Origin: Eledone cirrhosa
Taxonomy: Eukaryota
Reading direction: 5' to 3'
NCBI GenBank assembly: GCA_964016885.1
Contig: OZ024755.1
Span: forward strand, 17,174,001 to 17,238,000
Length of the DNA: 64,000 nucleotides
How positions within the stretch are numbered: position 1 is the stretch's first letter; every line of letters starts with the position of its first letter. The position numbers and the translations under genes were made by a program. Under the pieces are notes generated by a model. It was not told the origin of the DNA. It saw only the letters and a program-made list of their open reading frames with translations, and made no database searches. Below are positions 17,496 to 53,859 of this stretch, piece by piece.

Positions 17496-18470
17496 GTTTG
17501 TATCAAACTTTTTCTTCCTCTATTATATTTTGTTGTTTATTTACCTTTATTTTTCTTTCTATTTGTCTGTGTATTTGTTCTATTTTTATACAATATAGTA
17601 TTATATACGTTTATAAATGTTTATATGTATGAATGTGAATGTATGTATATGTGTGTGTGTATTAGCATCTCTACTAATTCAACAAGACAGAAATTGTTGC
17701 TGTTTTTAGAATCATGCATCTCTTGTACTATATATAAAAGAAAGTCACTAATATATACATATGTATGTATGTATGTATGTATATATATATACATACATAA
17801 ACAGACACATATACATATTTATATATACACATACATATATACATGCTAGCGTGGAAGATGGATGTTAAACGATGATGATGATATATATTTACATACATAA
17901 TAAATAAGAGAGATGGTTTTATTCATATATCTTCATTTTATTCGTTATATATATTTCGAAGATGACATATATATATCTATATCAAGTAAGAATATTTTCG
18001 AAACAGCGAGTGGGTTTGAAATTATTAGAAATGTAAGCTATCGCCGTATTTTGACTAAAGAAATTAAAGAAATTATTTAGCCTGATAGTGGGGTTAAGAA
18101 CTCTCTGAGAAATGGAAAAAGATGAGTATTGACGTATATATATATACATACACAGACACATATATTTATATATACACATACATATATACATGCTAGCGTG
18201 GAAGATGGATATTAAACGATGATGATGATATATATTTACATACATAATAAATAAGAGAGATGGTTTTATTCGTATATCTTCATTTTATTTGTTATATATA
18301 TTTCGAAGATGACATATATATATATTGAAGAGTTAAAAAAGATTCAATGATTACATCAAAGAATGAGTTTTATAGTATATTTGGAAGCACTCTACAAGAA
18401 AAATATTTTCCAGAGTTATTAATAATAAAATTCAAATATTAATAAAATAGATGTTCTTGTGATCAATTAA

Positions 18471-18536
18471 ATTTTATTATACATATTTCAGAGGTATGTG
18501 AATCAGGTTCAACAGTACGTCCTCATCAGATAAAAT
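18471..18536 (-). ncRNA. Type I minimal hammerhead ribozyme motif
   Basis: AUUUUAU-CUGAUGA-[GGACGUACUGUUGAA CCUGA UUCACAUACCUCU]-GAAA-UAUGUA-UA-AUAAAAU. Confidence 0.72.
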
Positions 18537-18619
18537 AAAATGATACATGACATACCCTGAGATGTTAGATGGTTAAAATTTAATCATCTAACATCTCAGG
18601 GTATGTCATGTATCATTTT

Positions 18620-18685
18620 ATTTTATCTGATGATGACTTACCGTTGAACCTGATTCACGTACCTCTGAAATATGTATAATAAAAT
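18620..18685 (+). ncRNA. Type I minimal hammerhead motif with a mismatched first pair of stem II (probably impaired)
   Basis: AUUUUAU-CUGAUGA-[UGACUUACCGUUGAA CCUGA UUCACGUACCUCU]-GAAA-UAUGUA-UA-AUAAAAU. Confidence 0.6.
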
Positions 18686-18790
18686 TTAATTGATTATAAG
18701 AACATCTATTTTATTAATATTTGAATTTTAATATATATATACATATATATATAATATATAAGATCAAAAGATGGTTAAAAGAGTTCCATG

Positions 18791-18861
18791 TATTTTATTA
18801 TGCACATTTCAAAAACAAATATCATCATGCGATGACATTTGCGTTTTCATCAGATAAAATA
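18791..18861 (-). ncRNA. Type I minimal hammerhead ribozyme motif
   Basis: Exact reverse complement of 18975-19045. Confidence 0.75.
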
Positions 18862-18974
18862 GGAAGACATGATATGAAGGTTAAAAAACACTTGTGAATA
18901 GTGCAGTTTTAAATCAACATATGTTAAAACTGCACTATTCACAAGTGTTTTTTAACCTTCATATGATGTCTCCC

Positions 18975-19045
18975 TATTTTATCTGATGAAAACGCAAATG
19001 TCATCGCATGATGATATTTGTTTTTGAAATGTGCATAATAAAATA
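18975..19045 (+). ncRNA. Type I minimal hammerhead ribozyme motif, sense to host gene
   Basis: UAUUUUAU-CUGAUGA-[AAACG CAAAUGUCAUC GCAU GAUGAUAUUUG UUUUU]-GAAA-UGUGCA-UA-AUAAAAUA; 8-bp stem I; predicted cut after 19037. Confidence 0.78.
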
Positions 19046-19166
19046 CATGGAACTCTTTTAACCATCTTTTGTTTATATATTATTTATACTCCAGTCCTAC
19101 AAACTATAGAGTGCTACTTATCTGATATCTGCATTGCTTTATTGTACTACAATAAAACTCACCTCC

Positions 19167-19258
<92 letters not shown>

Positions 19259-19751
19259 CATGCTAACACATTGTGTTGTGCATTAAATTAAGTTGCATTA
19301 CAACACAGCATATTGCTTAAGTAATTGAGGGAATTGTAATGGTTGTATTAGTAGTTGATGTAATGAATATTAAAAAGTTTATTTATAGCCTAAGTTAGAT
19401 AAATACCATTCTAGATAGCTTTCTAGGAAAGATATATTTAAATGAGACAGTTAATTGAATTATTGTAAGAATAGAAGATCAGCTTTGAAAACTAAAATAG
19501 AATTTATGTTAAGACTAATGAGCTTATGGTTTATATGTTCTGTTACCTTCATTAAGGTTTCATATACACAACACTAGGACATCTTGTGTGATATTGTAAT
19601 ATATATCTGTACATGTATATATGTATGTGTGTATACATATATATATATATGTATATGTATATATGTACATGTATATATATGTATATATGTACATGTATAT
19701 ATATGTATATATGTATGTATGTATGTATGTATATATATATATGTATGTATG

Positions 19752-19782
<31 letters not shown>

Positions 19783-19887
19783 GTATGTATATGTATGTAT
19801 GTATATATGTATGTATATGTATGTATGTATGTATATATATATATATGTATATATATATATGTATGTATGTATGCATGTATATATATG

Positions 19888-20150
19888 CTACTGGTAACAT
19901 GTATCCCAGTACAACCTGTCCCATGGCCGGGTCGTTGGCGACTAAACTGGCAACCCCACCAAGGATTCTTGGTGAGGAGGGTGACTTTGGACATCCTGCA
20001 GGACTAAAAACAAAACCTGTCAAAGGGCAAAGGAGCTCTTAAGAGTCAATGGCCATCCAAAATCACCGTGAGAGATGACCCCCTTAGCCTTTGTCAAGGC
20101 AGAATTCTAGGAGAAGGAAAACTCTGATATAACACCTGCAACCCTGATGG
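19888..20150 (+). mobile_element. Probable 5' UTR fragment of an RTE-type retroposon
   Basis: GC-richer island after a TA tract containing GGAGAAGGAAAACTCTGAT, which I recall from RTE 5' regions; RTE 3' fragments follow. Confidence 0.5.
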
Positions 20151-20249
20151 TATCCAATGATGTTGACTTGTTCTTCTTTTTGGTAAATATCATCTTGGTT
20201 AAGAGAGTGGGACTGGCTTTGTGCAGTGCCTTTGCTCACTATAAAAGCT

Positions 20250-20480
20250 TCACGGCACAGGCATTGCTTTATATCTGGAGACCTCTCTGCACTTGTCGTC
20301 ACATGGAATCATGGGCCCAGCACTGTGTCAATAATTGTCACAAGTGTAGTGTTTGTACCAGAGTTCTCAAGTCGCTGGCTGGACTAAAAAGTCACACTCG
20401 TTCAGCGCATCGGTAGGGGTTCTCCTACATGGATATAAAGTAGTGGCCGTACTCGATAACGAGTTGGCAGCCACCACCAT
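20250..20480 (+). mobile_element. RTE LINE 3' end encoding a C-terminal C2H2 zinc finger
   Basis: HKCSVCTRVLKSLAGLKSHTRSAHR-stop followed by a short-repeat tail. Confidence 0.78.
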
Positions 20481-20574
20481 ATATATATGTATATATATGT
20501 ATGTATATATATATATATGTTTGTATATATATATGTATGTATATATATATATCCACATATATATATATGTAGGG

Positions 20575-20797
20575 GCTCCCAAAGGAGCACTGAGTGCAAT
20601 ATCAACTCTGGATGTCGGCGAGCATGTCCAGCCAACCTCATGGACACACTAGAAGAGGAAGACCAAGGTTAACATATGTTGATGCCCTAAGGACAGACAC
20701 TGGTCTGTTGAAGATGCAGGATATGGCAGCGATAATGAGGGACAGAGACCGCTGGAGAGAACTCGTCCATGGATCTCGGGAATTTTACCCGCCTTAG
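20575..20797 (+). mobile_element. RTE LINE 3' fragment
   Basis: [23 protein letters not shown]...[13 protein letters not shown]. Confidence 0.82.
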
Positions 20798-20848
20798 ATA
20801 GATAGATATATATATATATATATACACATATATATATGTACATATATA

Positions 20849-20881
<33 letters not shown>

Positions 20882-21163
20882 GTGTGCATATATATATGTG
20901 TGTGTTTGTGTATATATATATGTCCACACACATACATACATAGTTATGTTCTTTAACATTTTGAGTTAGCTTTACCTTCCATCCTTACGCCGTTGATAAA
21001 ACAAAGTACCAGTCACGCACTGGGGTCGATTTGATCGACTATCCCCACCCCTTCAAATTGCTGGCCTTGTGCCTATGTAAGAAACCATTATTATATATTT
21101 TTATTCATTATAAAATCAATGAATGATTTCATAATGTTTTTTGTTTGTTTGTTCTTTTGATAG

Positions 21164-21310
21164 CACTTGAAACGGAATATAAGCTCCCAGAAAACTACTG
21201 TTGATAATCTTATGTCAAATAATTCTTATGTCTTGGATGAAAGCCAAGATGTCCGACATCAAACTAATGATATACAGAAAAGATATCAGCACTTGGTGAC
21301 CTCTGTACAG
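21164..21310 (+). CDS. Nesprin-like exon 7 (147 nt, phase 0/0)
   Basis: ttttgatag|CACTTG ... GTACAG|gtaaat; HLKRNISSQKTTVDNL...IQKRYQHLVTSVQ. Confidence 0.9.
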
Positions 21311-21499
21311 GTAAATATCCACAATTTCATTTCTTTTCTTTTGCTTTTCTTTTTACTTTGGTTTCATTCACACATTCGATATCGACTTGCCAGAAATCAA
21401 CTCTGATTCTATTAAAGAAAACCATCCATTTTAAATAGTTCCTATTCAAATTTAAATCTTCTGGCATAATATTTTATGAGAATATTTTGCTAAGTGGTT

Positions 21500-21950
21500 G
21501 TTGCGGTTGTGGTGGTTGTTGTGGTGGTGATGGTGGTGGTTGCAGTGGTGACGGTGGTGTTGTTGCAGTGGTGACGGTGGTGGCTGCAGTGGTTGTGTTG
21601 GTGGTGAGTGTGGTTGTGGTGGTGGTGGAGACGGTGGTGTGGTTGCAGTGGTGACGGTGGTGGCTGCAGTGGTTGTGTTGATGGTGAGTGTGATTGTGGT
21701 GGTTGTTGTGGTGGAGACGGTGGTGTGGTTGCAGTGGTTGTGTTAGTGGTGAGTGTGGTTGTGATTGTGGTGGTTGTTGTGGTGGTGGTGACGGTGGTGA
21801 CGGTGGTGGCTACAGTGGTTGTGTTGGTGGTGAGTGTGGTTGTGATTGTGATGGTTATTGTGGTGGTGGTGACGGTGGTGGTTGCAGTGGTTGTGTTGGT
21901 GGTGAGTGTGGTTGTGGTTGTGGTGGTGGTGGTGGTGGTGTTACAGTTGT
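21500..21950. repeat. Degenerate (GGT/GTT)n trinucleotide tract; similar tracts at 3621-3680, 31590-31910, 54700-54840, 56020-56225
   Basis: Seen directly. Confidence 0.9.
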
Positions 21951-22055
21951 TCTAGTTGTAACTTTCATATAATAAATGTTTTTGTGTGTAAATGTAATGT
22001 GTGTAACCACTCAACTTGTGTTATGATACCAATACCATCTAAATATTGAAATAAT

Positions 22056-22274
22056 TACTGTATATACTCAATATATAAGCTGAGAAATATGTGACCAAAG
22101 ATCAATGGTAAAATAAGTGTGTGTGTGTGGGGTGGGGCTTATATATGCCATCTAAACGTGTTGATTAGCTGCCTCAGTTTATAAATGAGGTTTGAAGTTA
22201 TGCCCATTTCTCAGACATAAAATAGGTGGGGCTGGCTTATATTCAGATCAGCTTATATTCGAGTATATCCAATA
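22056..22274. mobile_element. TA-flanked Tc1/mariner-pogo-type MITE
   Basis: TIRs TA-CTGTATATACTCAATATATAAGCTGA and TCAGCTTATATTCGAGTATATCCAA-TA. Confidence 0.75.
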
Positions 22275-23138
22275 ATAATTTTAGTAAATCCCTCGAAATT
22301 AACTGAAAGACAATGTATTCAATAAAAATTAAGGTCTTGAAAAGGTTAATCATTGCTTAACTTAATATGTTGTTTAGCCCCAGGCTAAGCCTAATCTAAG
22401 AGACCTATGATCAAAGACAAAGGTGGTTTGGTATAAAAAAGATTAAGCTGGCGTTTGGAACATAACTTAGGGTTCTTACATAAAATTTCGATTGAAAGTT
22501 TTTTTTAGATAAATATAAACTTTTTAAAACAAAGAATTTGTATCATAGAACCAGAGACTGTTTCAGGGAGTTTGGTATCAAAAGGATTAAGCTGATGTTT
22601 GGAACATAACTTAAGAAAGGTTTTTACATAAAACTATGATGGAAAGTTGTTTTTTTTAGATAAATATAAACATTTTAAAACAGTTTTGTATCAAAGAACC
22701 AAAGAAAGTTTCGAGTAGTTTAGCATCAAAAAGGTTAAACACATCATTTCTCAATATTTCATGTTTTTCCTTTGCATACAGAGCAACAAACAACTAGTAT
22801 GACATTGATTCAGTCAGTTTAGAAGTAAAATCTCTGCATATTTCAGTAAAGAAAACCTATTTAATGACTTCAATCAATGCTTTTATTGATGTTGGCTTCT
22901 TTATGGCCACATTCTATCTTAACAATTCTCTGGCAGGAGTAGCAACAAACAGATAGTATCAATATTGGAAAAACCAATGGAAATATTGTTTCCTTAGACT
23001 GATTTGATGAGTTAGACCCCACTTTGCAAACAAATAAGGTCTGGGATCTTGTTGATTATTTAAAGAAGAAGAAAATTAGTTTTCAAGTGGGTTCAAATCT
23101 GGGTTGTTTTGTAACAATGGTTCTAGAATTTGAATTCC

Positions 23139-23354
23139 TTAACCCTTTAGCATTTACATTACTCTATATTTACTATTGCATTTTCACAGTAAAGGCTTTA
23201 CCTCACATAATATCAAATCTATGAGATTTTGATATTATTTATTTTGAGAACAATACCCTAACATCAGTATGAGTGGCTGGTTACAGCCAGTTTGAATAGA
23301 AAGAGGTGAGAAAATTCTGGACAGATATGGCCAGCTTAAATGTTAAAGGGTTAA
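23139..23354 (+). mobile_element. TTAA-flanked piggyBac-type MITE
   Basis: TTAA-CCCTTTAGCATTTA ... TAAATGTTAAAGGG-TTAA. Confidence 0.82.
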
Positions 23355-23617
23355 TTTGGAAGCCACTGCTTCAGTATCTTTGTATGATATGCAGGAGTGC
23401 CATCATGCTGAAAACCAAACTAAAGATACATAACATTCGCAGAATGTTTAATTAGTGCAAAGAGACATCTGTTAATTCTCTCATAAAAATGTTTATGTTA
23501 GTAGATCAAATAAAGCCATAGTCTGATTTATTATATTGAACTTTGTAATATAATGAGATTATGCTAGAAACTTGTAGCAAACAATTTAAACACATATTGT
23601 CAACAATCAAAGGAAGT

Positions 23618-23665
<48 letters not shown>

Positions 23666-23704
23666 CAGGATGTGAGAAAAACCACAGACCCTCCATCTCA
23701 ACTC

Positions 23705-23744
23705 TACTTTTGAAAAGCAGAAAAACTGCGAAACCGGTAAAGGA
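23705..23744 (+). ncRNA. Minimal type I hammerhead motif with variant core UUGAAAA (U3-A8)
   Basis: CUU-UUGAAAA-GCAG AAAAA CUGC-GAAA-CCGG-UA-AAG; palindromic stem III ACCGGU. Confidence 0.62.
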
Positions 23745-24765
23745 ATCAAATAAATATATATATTTAAAAAAAAAAAGACTCCAGCTGCATTTTCGATTTC
23801 ATCTTTTTTCCTTATACTTTCTCTCGTGTAGGACACCTCGGTTATTTTCATTTTGTAAAAAAACCCTCACTTTCTAATATATATATATGTGTGTATGTAT
23901 ATATCATCATCATCATCATTTTACATCCACTTTTCCCTGCTTGTAAGGGTAGGACGGGAACTGATTCTGGCTTAATTTCTACAGCTGGATGCCCTTCCTA
24001 ACACCAACCTCATTTACAGTGAGTGCTGGGTGATTTTTTTTTGCCGTGTCGCCTACATGACCACTTTGCAGTGGAATGATAGGGGCCCCAGTCCCTATCA
24101 TCTCATTTCTACAGCTGAGTAAACTAGAGCAATGTGAAATAAAGTGTCTTGCTCAAGGAAACAACACATCACCTGGTCTGAGAATATATATATATATATA
24201 TATATATTGTTGTGACCTGTTCTTTCTTTCTCTCCATTTCCTTTGTTGTTATGAACTCTTTCCCTTTCTTTCTTTCTCTCCCTTTCTCTCTCTCTATCAT
24301 TACCTTATAACATTCATATTTCCACACTAGCATGAGTTAGACAAGTGGTCCCTTTGTGAGTCAAGTCAGGTCAGATAACCATGTCTTGCTCATACAGAAC
24401 TAATTTGGGCTTGATTTCTACAGCTGGCTGCCCTTTCTAACGCCAACCACATTTGCAGTGTGTATTGGGTGCTTTTTGTCATTACACACACACATTCCCT
24501 ACTTCTCTACAATACAACACTTTCTGATTTAGACATAAAGCTAACAATTTTGGTGGAGGGCAAAGCTAACCTCGGCAGGATTTGAAGTCAGAACATAAAG
24601 GGCCATAACTATATGCCACAAAGCATATTGTCTGATGCTCTACCGATTCTGTCAATCCACCATCAATCTTTTCACTGGCTGTTGGCAGAGTTTTGAGGTT
24701 TCTCTGAAAACCTACTGGCTTTTTTGTTTTTGCTCTTCCACTCTTTAGTGGCTGATGTAAGTGGT

Positions 24766-24994
24766 TTAACCTTTTAGCATTTAAACTGGCCATATCCGGC
24801 CAGAATTCTCTCAACTCTTTCTGTTCAAACTGGCTGTAACCAGTCGCTCATACTTATGTTAAGGTTTTGTTCTCAAAATAAATAATACCAAACTCTCATA
24901 GATTCGATATCATGTGGGATAATTAAGTGAGATAAAGTGTTTACCGTGAAAATACAATAGTAAATATAGAGTAATGTAAATAATAAAGGGTTAA
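24766..24994 (-). mobile_element. TTAA MITE, same family as 23139-23354, inverted
   Basis: Ends CAATAGTAAATATAGAGTAATGTAAATAATAAAGGG-TTAA, the near reverse complement of the start of the 23139 copy. Confidence 0.82.
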
Positions 24995-25188
24995 TAATAA
25001 ATATTGTTATTGAAATCAGTGAGGATGATGTTTTTGTTGTTCCAATTTCTTTGTCGTTCTTCTAGAATTGCGTATCAGTTTTGTAGTTCTAGTCAGAAAT
25101 TTATATAACATAACAACATTAAATGGCACATTTTTTTTCATCTATTTTCCTCTTTTTAATTTTTCTTATTTATTTTTTTTTCCTATAG

Positions 25189-25353
25189 CAACTTCATGAA
25201 AAGTGTGAACAACGTGTGGTAGAAGCACAGACTTATAGAGATGCTTACGTAGATGCTGCCAACTGGTTGAGTCTTACGCTAGAAACCCTGAATAACAATG
25301 GTGAAATCCAAGGTGATAGAAGTGTGTTGGAGACACAATTACATCACATTAGG
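25189..25353 (+). CDS. Nesprin-like exon 8 (165 nt, phase 0/0)
   Basis: tcctatag|CAACTT ... ATTAGG|gtaatt; QLHEKCEQRVVEAQTYRDAYVDAANWL...GDRSVLETQLHHIR. Confidence 0.92.
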
Positions 25354-27221
25354 GTAATTCACATTTGTTTTTGCTTTTATGGGGCTTTATTTTTCATTTT
25401 TTTTGCTTGTTTGTTTCTTAATCTTCTATTTTATTTATTTATTTATTTTTAGTTAATCTTAAATTTCATTGTTTAGTTTTTTGTTATTTTTTTATTTTAT
25501 TTATATATATATATATATTTAGTTAATTTTAAATTTCATTGTTTAGTATTTTTTTGTTAATTTTTTTAATATTTATATATTTTTTTTCAGTTAATTTTAA
25601 ATGTCATTATTTAGTAATTTTTTTTTAATTTTTTGTTTTATATATATATATTTTTTTGTTAATTTTTTTTATTTTATATATATATATTTTTTATTTTTTA
25701 TTTTATTTATATATATTTTTAGTTAATTTTAAATTACATTGTTTACGCTTAACGTCCCACTCAAATGTTCTGACATTGAAATTATTGGGATACAGTCATC
25801 CTTGAAATTTAATATGGCTACTACAATTGTGCTATTATTTTTTCTTTAAATGTTTTTTCCTTGTTTTGTCTAGAAGTGTTGTTTAAACCCCACTCCACCC
25901 ATGCCACCCCACCTTACCCATTTTTTTGTTTTTGTTATTTTATTTTATTCAAGTAATACTACTGCTATATCTTAGCTAAAGAGATAAACGACTTCCTGTA
26001 ACCAATATATGTATGTGTGTTTGTGTGTGTAGGTATGTGTTGGCATGTGGGTGTGTGTATTTGTATATGTATATATATGTGTGTGTGGGCATATATGTGT
26101 GTGTGTATGAATGTATGTATGCATGTGTGTATGTATGTTGTGTGCATGTATATATGTATGTGTGGATGTATGTATGTATGTGTGTATATGTGTGTATGTA
26201 TATATGTATGTGTGTATGTATGTGTGTATGTATATATGTACTTATATATATATGTATGTGTGCATGTATATATGTGTGTGCGGGTGGCATGTATATGTAT
26301 GTATACATGTATGTAGTGTGTATATGTGTGTATGTATATATGTACTTATATATATATGTGTGTATGTATGTGTGCATGTATATATTTATATGTGGTGGGT
26401 GTATATATATATATATATGTATGCATGTGTAAGTCTATGTATGTATATACGTACGTATATATATATATATGTATGTATGTATATATGTAAGTATCTTTCC
26501 CCCTTGTCATTTAGATGAAATGGCCCTCTTATCACCCAACTCCCATTTGTGCTCAAATGTCAGAGATTGTGGTCTTTCTGAATTATCACTATTAGTTTGG
26601 AATTTGTAAGAATTGTATGAGTGTGCTTCTATGTATGTGTATGTGTTTTTGTGTGTGCTTTTTAAGTGTGTATGTTTGTGTGTGTATGTTTTGTTTTTGT
26701 CTGTGTGCTATGTTTTGTGTATGTGTGTTTTTATGTGTGTTTTGTGGGTGTGTGTATGTCTTTGTGTGTTTTGTGTGTATGTATGTGTTTGTGTATGTTT
26801 TTCTGTGTGTGTTTGTGTATGTATGTGTTTTTATGTGTATATTTTTGTGTATGTATGTGTGTGTTTTTGTGTGTTTATATATGTTTGTTTGTATTTGCAT
26901 GTGTGTGTGTGTCTGAATGTGTGTTTTTATGTTTATAGATAGATTCTGAAATTATTTTATCTAGTAACTAAATTCTACCACCCCATATCAAACCATTTCT
27001 CAGTTTGGTTTGTGTGAGCAAGTTAAGACAAAATAACATTACTAGGATATTTCCGACAAAGCAATGGCAATGTTACCGTGTTGTTTCATGGAATAATCTA
27101 GAGAGAGAAAAATATATTGGTAAGATATTTAATTTAAAATTCACTGGTGTGATTTCATTTGTTAGTTTTCTATTTATACTTTGATTTAAAAGCAGGCATT
27201 TTTGTGTGAACTGTTAGAAGT

Positions 27222-27832
27222 TAACCTTTCATGACTGCATTTCTAATGAAATACACTCTATTTTGATCAATTAAAAAAGAATGTTGAGGAATTTATTAAA
27301 AGTATTTATTATTTCATTTCTAAAATAGTAACTTAATGTAAGGTTCTTATATAAAATTATGGTGGAAGATTTTAATTTAAATTAGAAACCTTTCAAATGA
27401 GTGGTTTTATTTCATAGAACCAAAGCCATTAATGGCCAGATTGGTAACATAGTAACTTAATGTAAGGTTCTTACATAAATTTTTGCTAGAAGATTTTAAT
27501 TTAAATTAGAAACCTTTCAAATGAGTGGTTTTGTTTTGTAGAACCAGTGCTGGTTTTGGCCGAGCTGGTAACATAGTAACCTAATGTAAGGTTCTTATAT
27601 AAATTTATGCTGGAAGATTTTAATTTAAATTAGAAACCTTTCAAATGAGTAGTTTTGTTTTGTAGAACCAGTGCTGGTTTTGGCCGAGCTGGTAACATAG
27701 TAACCTAATGTAAGGTTCTTATATAAATTTATGCTGGAAGATTTTAATTTAAATTGGAAACCTTTAAAATGAGAGGATTTTATTTCACAGAACCAGAGCC
27801 AGTTTTGGCTAGATTGGTAATTGAAGGGTTAA
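27222..27832. mobile_element. Second TTAA-MITE family copy with an internal 4 x 124-bp tandem expansion; other copies at about 4690-5032, 7862-8110, 22300-22740, 36640-36905, 41740-41885, 42180-42360, 47300-47710, 60250-60440
   Basis: TTAACCTTTC...GAAGGGTTAA ends; ATAGTAAC recurs at 27325, 27449, 27573, 27697. Confidence 0.75.
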
Positions 27833-29371
27833 AATTCACTGGTTGATTTAATTTGTTAGTTTTCTATTTATTCTTTTCCTTTAAAAGCAGATATTTTTAG
27901 TGTGAAATGTTCGAATTCAAATAAACTTCTCCACAGTGTTTGTTATTCTCCAAATAAAATATTCTGTTTTGCTTTAACATGCTGTTTTGTATATAGAACA
28001 TCACAGTCTTGTATTGAATTATATATTCCAGTAGAACTAGAACTGTTTGACCTGTAAGCTTGTACATGTGTGTATTTGTCTACATGAATGCATGTGTGTG
28101 TGTGTGTGTATGTATCTATATTTGTATGTATGTGTACATGTGTACTTGTGTACATGAATGCATGTATGGGTGTATGTATTTATATGTATGCATGTGTATG
28201 AGAGTACTTGTGTACATGTATGTGTGTATACATTTATTGTATTTAGTGTATGTATGTGTTGATGTGTGTATTTGTATACATGAATGCATGTATGTATTTA
28301 CATATGTATGTGTAGATGTATGTACTTGTGTGCATGAATGCATGGATGTTTATATGTATTTATATATGTATTTATGTGTACTTGTATACATGTATGTGTG
28401 TATGTATTTATATAGGTATGAGTGTATGTATGTGTAGATGTGAGTGCTTGTGTGCATTAATGCATGTATGTGTGTATGTATTTATGTATGTATGTGCACA
28501 TGTGTACTTGTGTGCATGCATGCATGTATATGTGTATGTATCTATGTATGTATGTATGTATGTATGTGCATGTGTGTACTTGGATGGAGGAAGACATTAC
28601 TCTTGAAGATGGCAAAGGAGATACACTAGAACAGCCACTCCACCTTGTGGGGCTCGCATCTAGTGGCAGCTAACTCTGCCCAGATAGCAGTGAGCAGGGA
28701 TGTGGTATTATAAAAAGAAACCTTTTCAAATTTCTTGAAGTGAGGTTTCATATCAGCTCTTAACTGGGCACTTCAAAGAGAAATCCTTTGATTAGACATG
28801 TTGTGCCTTATGAGGCAATACTCCAGCATTATTCCAGCATGGTCTTAGTCATGAGAGCTAAAACAAACTAAAGAACTTAAGAACATTACCCATGCTTTCA
28901 GAAAAAGTATACCAGAAACCTAATCTAAGAGAGTGTATTGTATTCTGTTTTGGAAAGAAAACAGTAAACAATTTTGCGTATAACTGATTTCTTTCTTCTT
29001 TTTTTTTTTGTTTAGCTAGACAGACTAAGAGGATTTTAATAAAAATATAATGCAGTTCATGAGATTAGGTTCAAATCTATTATGATTGGCTGCAAGGTAC
29101 AGACATTGTTGCATGGTTAAGAAGCTTTGTAATGACATGGTTTTAGAGGTTGGCCCTCTTATGTAGTTAATGTTAAAATCTGTTTAAGCTAAAGGCTCAT
29201 CAGGCTGGCGCTTATCTCTGGTTTTCTTGGCATTAAGTAACTGAGAGTACAAGACTCTTCCTGGATAGGGCACCAGTCTATCATAGGATTAGCTTCCCAG
29301 CTACTGCTGGTACTCACTCTCAACTGTGTGGGCTGGAGCAATGCGAAATAAAGTGATTTGCTGCACCCTTT

Positions 29372-29405
<34 letters not shown>

Positions 29406-30123
29406 CTATCTTAGCTCTAGGCTTACATTGTGAGTAGAATTTAATAGATTGACAGACCTGTCAACTCTCCCCGTCCAACGAGGAGATCTCCCCACCCACT
29501 TAGGGGTGAGTGAGAGATTTTTTCATGGTACACCTTGTTAGGGTTTTTAGAGGTTGGCAGGTCTGGATTGAATCTGTTTGGAAATCCTTCATATCACTAA
29601 TAACTTTTATTGGGATTCACTGTTCAATACTAAAAAAAATGGTTTCATCCACTATGTTTATATTTGAGAGAAAATTAAGTTATAGCAATTATATTGTGTA
29701 TATAATGTCTGAGAATGTAAATAAATGTAAACTAAGTTGACGTGAATGCAGTAATTTTGTTATATGAAATATCAGTTGATATTTGATTTTTATTTTATTG
29801 TTTCCATAGTAAAAACTTACAATTCTTCATGCTCCAGTCCATATTATTGTATATATGTACTATGGAATGATAGTTTGTTTTTTTTCTTCCAAAATGGCTG
29901 ACTGAATACACATGAGTTTTTCTCAAATAAATGTTTTTTCCTTTCCTGTCTCTTCTCACTCTCTATTTTTATATTTCATCTTTTACTTCTCTTTCTAGCT
30001 TTTCATGAAAGACTAGTTTTCGAAACCTTAGGACTCTTTTCCTACTATATCAAGGGTTAAACAAATATATTCATTGTACAATATTATTTGCTTTGTTGTA
30101 TCAATTTAATTTTTGTATATATA

Positions 30124-30715
30124 TCTATATATCTAAAACATGTAATGTCTGTCCGTCTGTCTGTCTGTTTCCCTAAAACTCGAGAATCACCCAACCGATT
30201 TTTTTCAAACTGTACACATGTAATACTTATGGTCGTGTGAGTGTTTTGAGCAAAAAAATATTTCAAATGTTCAATGCCTTAGGGACAGCATTAGGCGATT
30301 TAGCGATCTCTCTCTATCTTTCTTAGTCTGTCTTTTTAGATAGATACATAGCTATAATGTCTCGCCCTTATAATATCTGTCTGTATGTCTGGCTGTCTGC
30401 ATCACAACATTATGACACTAATTATATATTCGTGTACAGATTTTTTGCATACACAATAACAAAATATAAACAAATGTATTCATTTCACGAGGCTCGACAG
30501 CAGCAAAAACAACAACGAAAAAGAGAAGGAATGCAATTACATGATTTTGAAAAATCTTAATGGAAAATTATTTGCCTATTCTCCCAAGGCGACTTCACTT
30601 TTTATTAGGACTTCTGCATCAATTGGTGAACATATGACGAAACTGTTTCAGAAAGGAGAGATAAACATGCCAATCTATGTTTAGAATCCTGAACAATGTC
30701 GGGCCATTCTGCTAG
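30124..30715 (+). mobile_element. Non-autonomous Helitron
   Basis: 5' TC(TATATATCTAAAA), (GTCT)n near the 5' end, degenerate 3' hairpin CCTGAACAATGTCGGG then CTAG; lies between A (30123) and T (30716), no TSD. Confidence 0.78.
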
Positions 30716-31391
30716 TATATATATATAATAGCTGCCCACTGTTTATAGTGGAGCAATGTATTGCACATACACACCTTCAGATTTATTGGGTTGCGAATTG
30801 TCTGACATTTAGGCCATTTTCAAGGACTTTAGCAATATAAATTAAGGGATAGAATAACCCTTTGTGTGACTGAGGATATGAAAAGCTCCCTAGTGTTGAT
30901 GCTGCCATAAAATGCACCCAGTACACTTTGTAAAATGATTGGCATCAGGAAAAGCATCCAGCTGTATAAACTAAGCCAAAAACCTATGAGAGCTGTCAGG
31001 AACTCTGAACAAGATCTGACTATAAACTGCATTGATTAACCTGGCCCTAGCCAACATGGAAACTGGATGTATGAAGATGAATTCTGGACTCTGCTCATCA
31101 GAAATATGCCTCTAATCAGTGACAGTTGCCACAGTTTTATACAATGACTTATTAATTCATAACAATTTTCTTTAATCCTATACAAAAAATCTATATGTTT
31201 TTGTCTTCTATCTCACTGCAAATATTTTCATTATAGAATGAAAAAAGAATGAAAAAAGACAGGATGGTCATGCATAAAAGACCAATGATCATATGCTCAA
31301 TTAGCTGACTTGGGGTTAAATAACATCAATGCAAGCTTTATTATAGAAAGATATAAAAAAACATGTAATTATTCACCACTAGCACATCATT

Positions 31392-31580
31392 GGTGGATTG
31401 GCAGTATCGTTAGAGGGTTGGACGCCATGCTTTGCAGCATGGAGTTATAAGCCTTTATGATCTGAGTTCAAATCCTGCCGAGGTTAACTTTGCCTTTCAT
31501 CCTTACGGGGTCGATAAAATAAAGTACCAGTAATACACTAGAATAATTGCTGGCCTTGTGCCAAAAATTAGAAATTATTA
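31392..31580 (+). mobile_element. SINE family A copy; further forward copies or fragments at about 3100-3262, 14468-14560, 20960-21090, 47725-47860
   Basis: Matches family A head, core and tail. Confidence 0.88.
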
Positions 31581-32234
31581 TATTAGTACCACCATCACTA
31601 CTGTGCTGCTATCCACACTACAACACCATCTCTACCACTACAACAATATCGCTACCACTATACTACCATCTCCACCACTGCACCACCATCACCACTATAA
31701 TACCATCTCTACCACTTCACTATGGCAACAACACCATCATCACCACTATACCAATATCTCCACCACTACACTATTACTACACCACCATATCACCATCTCT
31801 ACTACTATACCGCTATCTCTTCCACTATACAACACTACTACAACAACAACACCCCATCACCATCTCCACCACTACAACAACACCACCACCCCATCACCAT
31901 CTCTACACCACTCACTAAACATTCATATCATAAAGATGATAGCAATAATTTTGTGTGAAACCATGATTGAAATCATGTAAAAGAAACAAATCTATTTGAC
32001 CCTTTTGAGACCATATTTCTCAGAAGTATGTATTCTGTCTTTTGTATTAAATTTTAAAATAATCAAGAATAATGAGTGATTTGGTGCAGTAACTAACTTT
32101 CAACTTAATAATAAAAGACAAATATTTAACTACTGAAATCTAATATTATTTTTCATGTAATAATGAGGTTTTAGTCAATGGTTTTGAATTTACATTTGGA
32201 TACTTTAATAGGAATAGTTTTGGGTGGGATTGGG

Positions 32235-32345
32235 GAATTAGTTTCTGGATTTAATGTTGAATATGGAGTGGTTGGGTTTGTGTTGGTATTTATAGCTGAG
32301 TATGGAAATATTTTATTTATAAGATTTTTATTGAGTAGAATATTT
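32235..32345 (+). pseudogene. ND1: NUMT: fragment of mitochondrial NADH dehydrogenase subunit 1
   Basis: Invertebrate mitochondrial code gives [37 protein letters not shown], matching the conserved ND1 [10 protein letters not shown]...F.AEY..I..M block. Confidence 0.9.
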
Positions 32346-32680
32346 TAACATCCTGAGGTGAGATTGGAGTGTAACACTTAACATTTTGTATCAAATGAAA
32401 TCACAATAGCAAGACATTTGTGAAATGTAAAAAATAGCTCTACGACTACATCACGTTAAAAATTAAAGTCTTTATTCTGATTCTCCAAATTTTTTATGAC
32501 GATCTGTCTTCTAGCAAAGATATAAACATTTGAATTAGAAAACGTGATTTTACACATTTTTTTTTACCAAATCCTTACAGGAGTTAAATGGTAAAAAAAT
32601 GTTTATTGTATCAAAAACAATAACAAAATGAAAAAATAAATCTATTAACACAAGCTTTTTTTTTTTTCTACTACTTTCAG

Positions 32681-35176: not shown

Positions 35177-37029
35177 GTAATTTCTTTTTTATTCTTCTAA
35201 TATTTCTACTAAAACTGTTGTTTTGTCACCTGGGAAACATAAATATTCAAACCCACTATGTGCTGAGGAAACGAGTTTCAAAGAAGATTCAGAAAACTCA
35301 GGTGCAGAAAACAACTGCAACCACAGTCAGCTGCTACAAATTAGCCTGCAAAAATCAGGCAAAGACCCTAAAAGATGGTAAAAATGCTGCCAGTAGCCAG
35401 TTTTTGTATGATTTTTGTATGATTTTTCCACTTGCTTCATCAAGACGTTAATTCCATCCTAAAACAAACTGAAGAACTAAGTGTATTGATATTTTTTATT
35501 CATACAAAAAAGGGTCGAGAGGACTCTTCAGTTATGTCAAGAGAACAGCTTCCTCTCTGGTGCTGGCGCCACAATAAATTGCATACAGTATACTACACTC
35601 TGTAAAGTGATTGGTGATAGGAAGGTTATCCAACCATAGAAAACTTGCAAAATAAAGGGTCAAGAAAACTCTTCAGTTGTATCAAAGATATAACAATCTC
35701 CCTAGTACTGGTGCCAAGATAAAACACACAGCCATTACACTTTGCAAAGTATGGAAACATATATAAGATGTGGTTCTTTGGCCCATTTGAGAGCTCAGTG
35801 GTTCCAGCTAAGTACTGACTAGGTCTGTAGTAACTTGTCCAACTCTTGCTAGCAAGGAAGGGAAAGCAGATGATGATGATATCTAAAACGTGTTTTTGAA
35901 ATATTTTAAGGCTTTTGTTTTATTCAGGGGATAATCTCAAACATAGACCCAAAGCTATAAATTTAGCAGGAATGGTATAGTCAGTTATATCAACCTCAGT
36001 ACCTTACTGATATTTTATTTTATCAATGTCGAAATGATGATAAACAAAGTTGACCTTTGTATGATTTGAACTAAGAATGTGAGGACCCAGAATATATACT
36101 GCAAATCATTTCATCAGATACTCTGACATTCCTGCCAATCCAAAAAAAGGATTTTTCTTCCTTATATGAAATTTGCTGGTTATGTGATTATGATACATGA
36201 AATCTATGTTCATATTTGTCTATCTTATGATGGGAACCTGTACACTTTATTTGCTTCAATATATTTACAACATCCATAATCTTTTCAGATTACTCTGGCT
36301 TCTTATTCAGTATGCTGGAATAGTCAAATATTAATCAGCACTCCTATCTGATTGCTAAGGAACTATTTCTTCTGTATGTTTCTTATCTTTCTTCAGAGAT
36401 TGGAAGAGCGAGCTGCTGTAAACTTACATTTATACATTCTTTGATAAATAACCCCCTTTCCAAACCTCATCTATCATGTCAACTGATTTTACTTTACATA
36501 TCATCATTTAGTATGCTATTCCCAAAGTAGGGTCAAATGAAACATGGTAAGCCACTCAATCCTTTTAGCATTTGATGTTACTCGAAGCATATAATCATTG
36601 TATTTGTTGTTGCCAAAAATATTCAGGTTTTTTTCAATTTAACCCCTTCATTACCATATTTCTAATAAAAGACACTGCCTATAATTTTGAAATCAATTTG
36701 AAAATAATCAAACATTTGAAGGGATTTAGTAGTATGACTAATTTTCTTATTATTAAGATAGGTGTTTAGAAAATAGATTAACAGACATTCTTACATAAAA
36801 TTATAATGAAAAGTTTGTAGATAAATATAAAGACTTTAAAATTAATGGTTTTGTATCATAGAATTAGGGGCAGTTTCAAGCAGTTTCGTTTCAAAAGGGT
36901 TTACAGGACTTTTACAAGAAGTTGCTATTTAAATCCTTCACTGAACCTAATAAACAACCTACTTTGCATGGTTCAGTTTCTTGTGTGCATGTGTGTGTGT
37001 TGGGGGGGGGGGGGGGGTTGGACCTCCTT

Positions 37030-37470
37030 CAGTTCTGATGATTTAAAAAAATATGTCTTTGGAGTAACATTACTCGATAGAGTGCATAGCCCAGAGATCA
37101 GAGAGTCAGTCCAGGTAGAGCCTCTACTTCTCCAAATTGAGAGTTCTGATATTATGGGTATGTGGTCAGAATATCTCAAAAGAGAATTGCTGTATAGATT
37201 TTATAGGCAAAACCAACTGGCAAGAGACCCAGGGATAGACCTCTGGGTAAGATGGTTAAATAACATCCATCAGCTTATCTCGTCTCACTTGGGGTGCCCA
37301 GTCAGATCAATTGAAGATGATTGCTTCAAACAGGGCCTGCTTGAGGACTCTGTTTGAGGACTCTGCTCCAACAATCCTCTCCCAAGAATAATTCAACAAA
37401 GATGATGATGATGATGGAGATGATGATGATGACGACGATGACAAAGATGGTGATGACGATGATAATGATG
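37030..37470 (+). mobile_element. Decayed RTE LINE 3' end with (GAT)n tail; other RTE 3' ends at about 44976-45475 (+), 46600-46790 (-), 49110-49300 (+), 63010-63185 (-)
   Basis: GVTLLDRVHSPEIRESVQVEPLLLQIE; RQLRFAGHCWR at about 45002; 45280-45470 and 63010-63185 are inverted homologues. Confidence 0.72.
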
Positions 37471-39788: not shown

Positions 39789-40350
39789 GGACTGTCTGGC
39801 GGGTTTTCTACAGCTGGATGCCCTTCCTAACACCAACCACATTTACAGTGTGGGGCTGGGAGGTTTTTACCGTGTTGCCTACACGGCCACATTACAGCGT
39901 GGACTGTCTGGCGGGTTTTCTACAGCTGGATGCCCTTCCTAACACCAACCACATTTACAGTGTGGGACTGGGAGGTTTTTACCACGTTGCCTACACAGCC
40001 ACATTACAGCGTGGACTGTCTGGCGGGTTTTCTACAGCTGGATGCCCTTCCTAACCAACCACATTTACAGTGTGGACTGGGAGGTTTTTACCGTGTTACC
40101 TACATGGCCACATTACAGCGTGGACTGTCTGGCGGGTTTTCTACAGCTGGATGCCCTTCCTAACACCAACCACATTTACAGTGTGGGACTGGGAGGTTTT
40201 TACCGTGTTACCTACACGGCCACATTACAGCGTGGACTGTCTGGCGGGTTTTCTACAGCTGGATGCCCTTCCTAACACCAACCATATTTACAGTGTGGGG
40301 CTGGGAGGTTTTTACCGTGTTGCCTACACGGCCACATTACAGCGTGGACC
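39789..40350. repeat. Tandem repeat, 5 x about 112 bp, inside a reverse-oriented (GAT)n-tailed retroposon (about 39660-40400)
   Basis: GGAC unit starts at 39789, 39901, 40013, 40122, 40234, 40346; contains CAGCTGGATGCCCTTCCTAAC shared with dispersed copies. Confidence 0.95.
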
Positions 40351-52734: not shown

Positions 52735-53859
52735 TGCTGGGTCATGTAAATATCAGATTGAATGATATCGGATTAAATGGCTGAGCAGTGCAGCTCTGAA
52801 CAAAAATATCCATCAACCATCAAACTGATCTTTTGCTGGGTCATGTAAATATCAGATTGAATGATATCAGATTAAATGGCTGAGCAGTGCAGCTCTGACC
52901 CAAAAAATCCATCAACCATCAAACTGATCTTTTGCTGGGTCATGTAAATATCGGATTAAATGGCTGAGCAGTGCAGCTCTGACCAAAAAAATCCATCAAC
53001 CATCAAACTGATCTTTTGCTGGGTCATGTAAATATCGGATTAAATGGCTGAGCAGTGCAGCTCTGACCAAAAAAATCCATCAACCATCAAACTGATCTTT
53101 TGCTGGGTCATGTAAATATCGGATTAAATGGTTGAGCAGTGCAGCTCTGACCAAAAAAATCCATCAACCATCAAACTGATCTTTTGCTGGGTCATGTAAA
53201 TATCGGATTAAATGGTTGAGCAGTGCAGCTCTGACCCAAAATATCCATCAACCATCAAACTGATCTTTTGCTGGGTCATGTAAATATCGGATTAAATGGT
53301 TGAGCAGTGCAGCTCTGACCCAAAACATCCATCAACCATCAAACTGATCTTTTGCTGGGTCATGTAAATATCGGATTAAATGGTTGAGCAGTGCAGCTCT
53401 GACCCAAAACATCCATCAACCATCAAACTGATCTTTTGCTGGGTCATGTAAATATCGGATTAAATGGTTGAGCAGTGCAGCTCTGACCAAAAAAATCCAT
53501 CAACCATCAAACTGATCTTTTGCTGGGTCATGTAAATATCGGATTAAATGGTTGAGCAGTGCAGCTCTGACCCAAAATATCCATCAACCATCAAACTGAT
53601 CTTTTGCTGGGTCATGTAAATATCGGATTAAATGGTTGAGCAGTGCAGCTCTGACCAAAAAAATCCATCAACCATCAAACTGATCTTTTGCTGGGTCATG
53701 TAAATATCGGATTAAATGGTTGAGCAGTGCAGCTCTGACCCAAAATATCCATCAACCATCAAACTGATCTTTTGCTGGGTCATGTAAATATCGGATTAAA
53801 TGGTTGAGCAGTGCAGCTCTGACCCAAAAAATCCATCAACCATTAAACTGATCTTTTGC
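52735..53859. repeat. Tandem array, 13 copies (2 x 99 bp + 11 x 84 bp), highly homogeneous
   Basis: TGCTGGGTCA at 52735, 52834, 52933, then every 84 bp to 53773. Confidence 0.97.

Follow-up and report, generated by a model that had tools for sequence, protein, structure and literature searches.

A solo minimal hammerhead motif with a U3-A8 core, probably a retroelement remnant, in a likely nesprin-like intron

Within 40 bases (23705..23744, + strand) of the 64-kb window, by which we mean the whole stretch of DNA that was analyzed, lie all the letters of a small hammerhead self-cutting RNA motif. Its letters supply every structural part of a type I minimal hammerhead, including a palindromic stem III, and the core is of the U3-A8 form; we regard the 40 bases as very probably a real hammerhead-type motif. 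Our preferred reading, to which we give a probability of about three in four, is that the motif is a solo terminal-repeat remnant of a Penelope-like retroelement, or of a non-autonomous derivative, one that inherited its U3-A8 core and lies in a TA microsatellite of a probable nesprin intron. The motif and its surroundings are laid out as follows:

17496..32680, + strand: likely host intron of about 15 kb, from spectrin matches and GT/AG ends
23620..23665, no strand: left (TA)n tract, the likely insertion target
23666..23750, + strand: left piece of about 85 bp, 41% GC, containing the motif, delimited by composition
23705..23709, + strand: 5′ strand of stem I, with CUU at 23707-23709
23705-23706 with 23743-23744, + strand: outer part of stem I, an A23706/G23743 mismatch and then a U23705-A23744 pair, from the sequence
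23710..23716, + strand: core U3-U4-G5-A6-A7-A8-A9 (UUGAAAA), with U3 at 23710 and A8 at 23715
23717-23720 and 23726-23729, + strand: stem II, GCAG/CUGC, 4 bp, with an A5 loop at 23721-23725
23730..23733, + strand: core G12-A13-A14-A15.1 (GAAA), from the sequence
23733..23738, + strand: stem III, ACCGGU, a perfect palindrome, with CCGG at 23734-23737 and U16.1 at 23738
23739, + strand: A17, with the cut predicted 3′ of it from hammerhead numbering; the GUA triplet fits the NUH rule
23740..23744, + strand: 3′ strand of stem I, AAG at 23740-23742, then the mismatched G and an A
23751..23777, no strand: right A/T-only tract, a short TA run and A13, from the sequence
23778..23876, no strand: right piece of about 100 bp, a very high-copy repeat, from summed contig depth

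The conserved core of a type I minimal hammerhead (U4 G5 A6 A9 / G12 A13 A14 A15.1 / U16.1 H17) is complete, and both letters and register are as a first-pass annotation of this DNA had claimed, with positions 3 and 8 as the sole departures from CUGANGA. At these positions U3-A8 replaces C3-G8, and a Watson–Crick pair between U23710 and A23715 would be possible. A23716 is followed directly by G23717, such that the unpaired base between A9 and G10.1 is absent, and stem II opens with the conserved G10.1-C11.1 pair (G23717-C23729). Stem I consists of 3 bp (CUU/AAG), matching the NNN/NNN of the min-HHR consensus, and its predicted occupancy is low. Three features of the motif are ones that no core search demands, namely the G10.1-C11.1 pair, the palindromic stem III and the Watson–Crick 3-8 pair. 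The sequence GAAACCGGT occurs once in the window with both strands counted, and that occurrence is the U3-A8 motif.

The U3-A8 core is not new: it appeared in the literature in 2011 and was linked to Penelope-like elements in 2014. Positions 3 and 8 form a real tertiary pair (PMC3884650), as the first-pass annotation had it, and its statement that a U-A swap can retain activity agrees with Perreault et al. (2011), who describe natural U3-A8 covariation in several examples and cite activity in vitro as shown earlier (PMC3088659); the motif here has the same covariation in its letters. Cervera and De la Pena (2014) report U3-A8 in the Cercyon Penelope-like elements of Schistosoma mansoni, with ∼1,300 mostly single motifs (PMC4209133). 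Since the variant is published (PMC3088659, PMC4209133), the novelty that the first-pass annotation implied for it is unsupported. Its remark that a literal CUGANGA search misses a U3-A8 motif is right (PMC4209133), and CUGANGA-fixed searches in general, like the Rfam models used here, undercount such motifs, a point that is itself already published. The literature searched, a set lacking most subscription papers, yielded no cephalopod report and no further U3-A8 report beyond the 2014 paper, though Lunse et al., on small hammerhead variants and Penelope-like elements, may cover such cases. If the host is a cephalopod, as the look of the DNA suggests, a U3-A8 family in it would add a host group.

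One of the closest likenesses is to the S. mansoni Cercyon motifs (family Sm3, row S. mansoni(4); PMC4209133), which have in common with the present motif the type I topology, the U3-A8 core, the G10.1-C11.1 pair, a palindromic stem III and a mostly solo state. The element-linked S. mansoni(4) row of Fig. S3, whose rows were taken from the PDF text layer with the GAAA column printed apart, shares the UUGAAAA core and likewise has a stem I of 3 bp. The G10.1-C11.1 pair and the palindromic stem III are named hallmarks of these motifs, in accordance with the first-pass description of ACCGGU as a typical palindromic stem III, and solo motifs without a frame are their common state (PMC4209133). Unlike the S. 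mansoni motifs, the motif here has no extra base after A9 and no attached reverse-transcriptase frame, its stem II is 4 bp where theirs is 6, its palindrome is 6 nt where theirs is 4, and its H17 is A. The min-HHR consensus of Fig. S3 has a 3-bp stem I and an extra base between A9 and G10.1, and this base is absent in the M. japonicus and Saccoglossus(2) rows (PMC4209133). The Penelope-element motif of Marsupenaeus japonicus, listed there among variants with a small palindromic helix III, resembles ours in lacking the extra base after A9 and in its 4-bp stem II, 6-nt palindromic stem III and A17, but its core is the canonical C3-G8 one and its stem I is 5 bp long (PMC4209133 Fig. S3).

The window is AT-rich, microsatellite-rich animal DNA, in which five of the six exon-like + strand frames tested match Spectrin_SYNE1 or Spectrin, with scores below the curated cut-offs, as is to be expected of single exons. 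A donor GT (17496) precedes the motif and an acceptor AG, whose last base is 32680, follows it; a weak Spectrin match lies at 32678, and no spectrin-matching exon-like frame of at least 45 codons was found between 17496 and 32680. Taken together, the spectrin frames, the GT/AG ends and the empty interval between them suggest that the motif is likely intronic, its host being a nesprin-1-like gene with spectrin repeats, and that it is in the sense orientation to this gene. A search for homologues of the host gene returned 33 candidates, none of them reaching an E-value of 1e-10.

The immediate surroundings had been described as an island of ∼200 bp between TA tracts; the island is there, and it consists of two pieces split by the A/T tract at 23751-23777 (4% GC). 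The ∼85-bp left piece is likely what is left of a terminal repeat of the parent element. Microsatellite (TA)n targeting is known for several Penelope-like clades, a habit that the left (TA)n flank fits, and inverted and truncated copies have been described for Penelope-like elements (PMC8557442). The right piece, of which a second copy was not found within the window, reaches depths of 2.4e5-6.6e5 in run X1 versus 15-29 in the unique left flank (23375-23612), where the values are summed contig depths rather than copy numbers and 4 of the 10 listed runs were used. Its depth is also raised in runs X4 and X8, and its summed depth is about a hundredfold higher in X1 than in X4. The stretch, or part of it, is present in 7 of the 10 listed sequencing runs, none of them listed as RNA, which carries no information on expression, and the left flank is matched by one contig of another organism (run X4) with 18 differences in 203 letters. 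A coding role for the island was considered and rejected, as most frames contain stops and the two long frames have no Pfam match.

The description of the motif as a solo copy holds for the window, in which no second copy or partner of the motif was found. Nor did the 64 kb yield a partner palindrome in hammerhead-like surroundings or a repeat of 23666-23752 in either orientation (a pseudo-LTR); there were no tandem hammerhead-bearing units and no reverse transcriptase plus GIY-YIG frame or Penelope-like coding remnant, a crude motif scan included. Because neither a frame nor a terminal repeat was found, the motif is not filed as a Penelope-like element but as likely a remnant only, and the lack of a tandem keeps it from being filed as a retrozyme. 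At the protein level, a copy search with the 63-codon open frame across the island gave no candidate; with the full library the same frame gave two matches, the better of which, to a repeat protein over 10 of 24 residues, was rejected as chance, while the second had no matched stretch.

Outside the window, viral contigs gave no match to a first pattern and three matches to a second, none with stem III or stem I. A pattern scan of metagenome contigs gave 62 matches at 61 loci, among which stem II was at least 4 bp in 11, stem I was at least 3 bp in 6, both held in only 1 (L009), and, with 12 bases inspected on each side, none had flanks like those of the motif. Since a rough estimate predicts ∼0.5 such matches, we treat L009 as a lead and not as support. 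At 684-721 of its AT-rich metagenome contig, L009 is built like the present motif, as a minimal hammerhead with a U3-A8 core, a 4-bp stem II, ACCGGU and a 4-bp stem I that extends 3 bp beyond a 2-nt bulge. An open frame ∼85 bases downstream runs off the contig; it has no Pfam match, and its Atlas scores are all under 0.9.

To consider how such a motif could act, we turn to its predicted folding, with models that ignore tertiary and metal effects. Stem II is predicted to pair with a probability of 0.88-0.99 across four contexts, while in the monomer stem III has a predicted probability of 0.0 and stem I of 0.00-0.02, and there part of the 5′ arm is predicted to pair with stem III letters instead. 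With two strands, the ACCGGU self-duplex (6 bp, predicted −8.3 kcal/mol) would form with a probability of 0.84-0.93 at 37°C. In the predicted dimer, stem II and the duplex of stem III persist, and stem I stays mostly open even there (∼0.06); the full double hammerhead is predicted at −15.5 kcal/mol versus −19.1 kcal/mol for the best dimer. Published minimal motifs of this kind showed no cleavage in vitro as single motifs and low cleavage as dimers (PMC4209133), and a review restates the dimer model (PMC6765202). The hammerhead of a Penelope-type element cut only with the element's protein present, where a single change at position 3 or 8 left no cut and a double swap recovered part of it; for insertion in vitro the cut was dispensable (PMC11167929).

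The preferred reading would then run as follows. The parent, a Penelope-like element or a non-autonomous derivative, would already have carried U3-A8, and it would have landed in the TA microsatellite of the likely nesprin intron. Its transcript, in which copies stand in tandem, may have let two of them pair via their ACCGGU palindromes to form stem III. With U3-A8 taking the place of the tertiary C3-G8 pair, cleavage would have fallen after A17 (23739), at a slow rate and probably aided by a protein of the element itself. Because no partner was found in the window and no stem III is predicted to form alone, the lone copy is probably inert in vivo. The first-pass annotation had taken the short stem I as a sign that the copy may be weak; since the published consensus is 3 bp (PMC4209133 Fig. 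S3), such a stem is normal for minimal hammerheads, and the likelier cause of inactivity is the missing dimer partner rather than the short stem I. The motif would carry greater weight only if the solo copy cuts the host pre-mRNA, and means little on its own otherwise.

Among the other explanations, the frequency of such motifs in null sequences bears on the idea of a chance match in AT-rich intron DNA with no ribozyme ancestry. A loose U3-A8 descriptor matched 0.053 times per window over 150 block-wise dinucleotide shuffles, a rate that leaves room for chance, and 0.027 times with a stem II of at least 4 bp added. The full descriptor, which further includes the 6-nt palindrome and a stem I of at least 3 bp, is much harder to reconcile with chance: once the palindrome was included there was no match in the 150 shuffles, and 1500 order-3 Markov windows gave one match with U3-A8, two with any Watson–Crick 3-8 pair and none when G10.1-C11.1 was added. 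These null rates are somewhat favorable because the descriptor was written post hoc, after the motif had been seen, and ∼0.001 matches per window over very many windows scanned would give some chance matches; for both reasons we leave chance a small share of the probability. A second copy was found by no route, whether in the window, among metagenome contigs or at the protein level, and the core sits in the A/T-rich inverted repeat CUUUUGAAAAG, both of which speak for chance. The unremarkable folding z-scores (−0.89 and −1.21) also point that way, but low folding scores are expected, since motifs of this kind need a partner. The same can be said of Rfam, which did not detect a hammerhead at the motif, either at the gathering score or with E-values up to 10: four canonical-core motifs at 18.4-19.1 kb of the window were equally missed, so this silence is of little weight. 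Although a type I core is common to the motif and to Rfam Hammerhead_1 and related models, these models seem not to cover minimal hammerheads of this kind; the giant squid genome has 235 Hammerhead_1 loci (PMC6962438). An Rfam match to MALAT1 over the motif was rejected, at 20.5 bits versus a cut-off of 70. On balance we consider a chance match unlikely.

It is also quite unlikely, in our estimate, that the motif is an ordinary C3-G8 family copy with two transitions acquired after insertion, in which case the swap would be uninformative on selection. Both changes are indeed transitions, the A/G mismatch beside stem I may reflect some decay, and the four motifs with canonical cores that lie 5 kb upstream, within this intron, indicate that hammerhead-like remnants occur in this genome. 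These belong to another family, however: they have no flank in common with the U3-A8 motif, and their stem III letters do not complement ACCGGU. Neither changed base lies in a CpG, which favors an inherited U3-A8 subfamily over decay, and the motif retains its two CpGs (23729, 23735) in a setting where the window-wide CpG observed/expected ratio is 0.28. Under a simple decay model with independent sites, the probability per copy that a canonical motif acquires precisely this pair of transitions and no change at its 27 remaining constrained sites is 4e-5 to 3e-4. An intact copy from a family with U3-A8 is, at the same divergence, 36 to 2352 times likelier per copy, a ratio that presupposes such a putative family in the genome. 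Selection on catalysis in the parent element, which the first-pass annotation proposed, may lie behind the double change. That the motif is part of a monomer from a tandem non-LTR retrozyme or a SINE with a hammerhead, in which the motif and the 23778-23876 piece would make up one unit of ∼210 bp, is improbable to a degree similar to chance. The two pieces do lie together between TA tracts, the right one is very high-copy, and animal non-LTR retrozymes have, like the motif here, a type I hammerhead, with solo monomers known alongside tandem units of 150-450 bp (PMC7229834; bioRxiv 10.64898/2026.07.22.740005). These retrozymes are dimer-dependent in some families and thought to derive from Penelope-like elements, but they occur as tandems and mostly have canonical, longer stems with loop contacts (PMC7229834; bioRxiv 10.64898/2026.07.22.740005), while here there is no tandem array and the A/T tract separates the pieces. 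A ribozyme used by the host to cut the nesprin-like pre-mRNA is the least credible of the readings: the sense orientation in a long intron and the intact core letters would suit it, but a sense orientation would be expected half the time, and such a role is opposed by the predicted monomer fold, by the missing partner palindrome in 64 kb and by the uncut single minimal motif in vitro (PMC4209133). We think it very unlikely, too, that the motif is live in another way, with ACCGGU pairing between two nascent nesprin-like transcripts, or between a transcript and an element RNA with the element's protein, and cutting of the intron at 23739. If it were live, a stray retroelement ribozyme with a swapped core would be a transcription-density-dependent cutter inside a host gene.

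Apart from the U3-A8 motif, the same intron holds two adjacent long inverted repeats (18417-18739 and 18748-19088) with arms of 161 and 165 bp that are 94-95% complementary. Each arm bears one of the canonical-core motifs, with CTGATGA at 18627 (+), 18529 (−), 18983 (+) and 18853 (−), and in all of them stem I is 7-8 bp long and stem III is 8 nt and nearly palindromic. The two pairs of motifs agree in core and stem I flanks and diverge in stem II. Three of the four pass the descriptors, and the one at 18627 was read by eye. The repeats at 18417-19088 would form long double-stranded hairpins in a pre-mRNA, and Rfam returned only sub-threshold microRNA-hairpin matches for this interval.

Several other repeats lie within the window. 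A very high-copy element of ∼215 bp at 23139-23354 has 18-bp terminal inverted repeats, matching at 17 of 18 positions, that begin TTAA-CCC, and we take it to resemble a piggyBac-type miniature element. Five tandem 112-bp units (39789-40349), 95% alike, have letters resembling a repeat at ∼23980-24060, making this interval a tandemly repeated fragment of a dispersed repeat. Additionally, an 84-bp minisatellite spans 52864-53859 with 11.9 copies and 98% matches, and a 178-codon open frame lies at 36821-37357 (+), the second half of which looks to us like the tail of a LINE reverse transcriptase.
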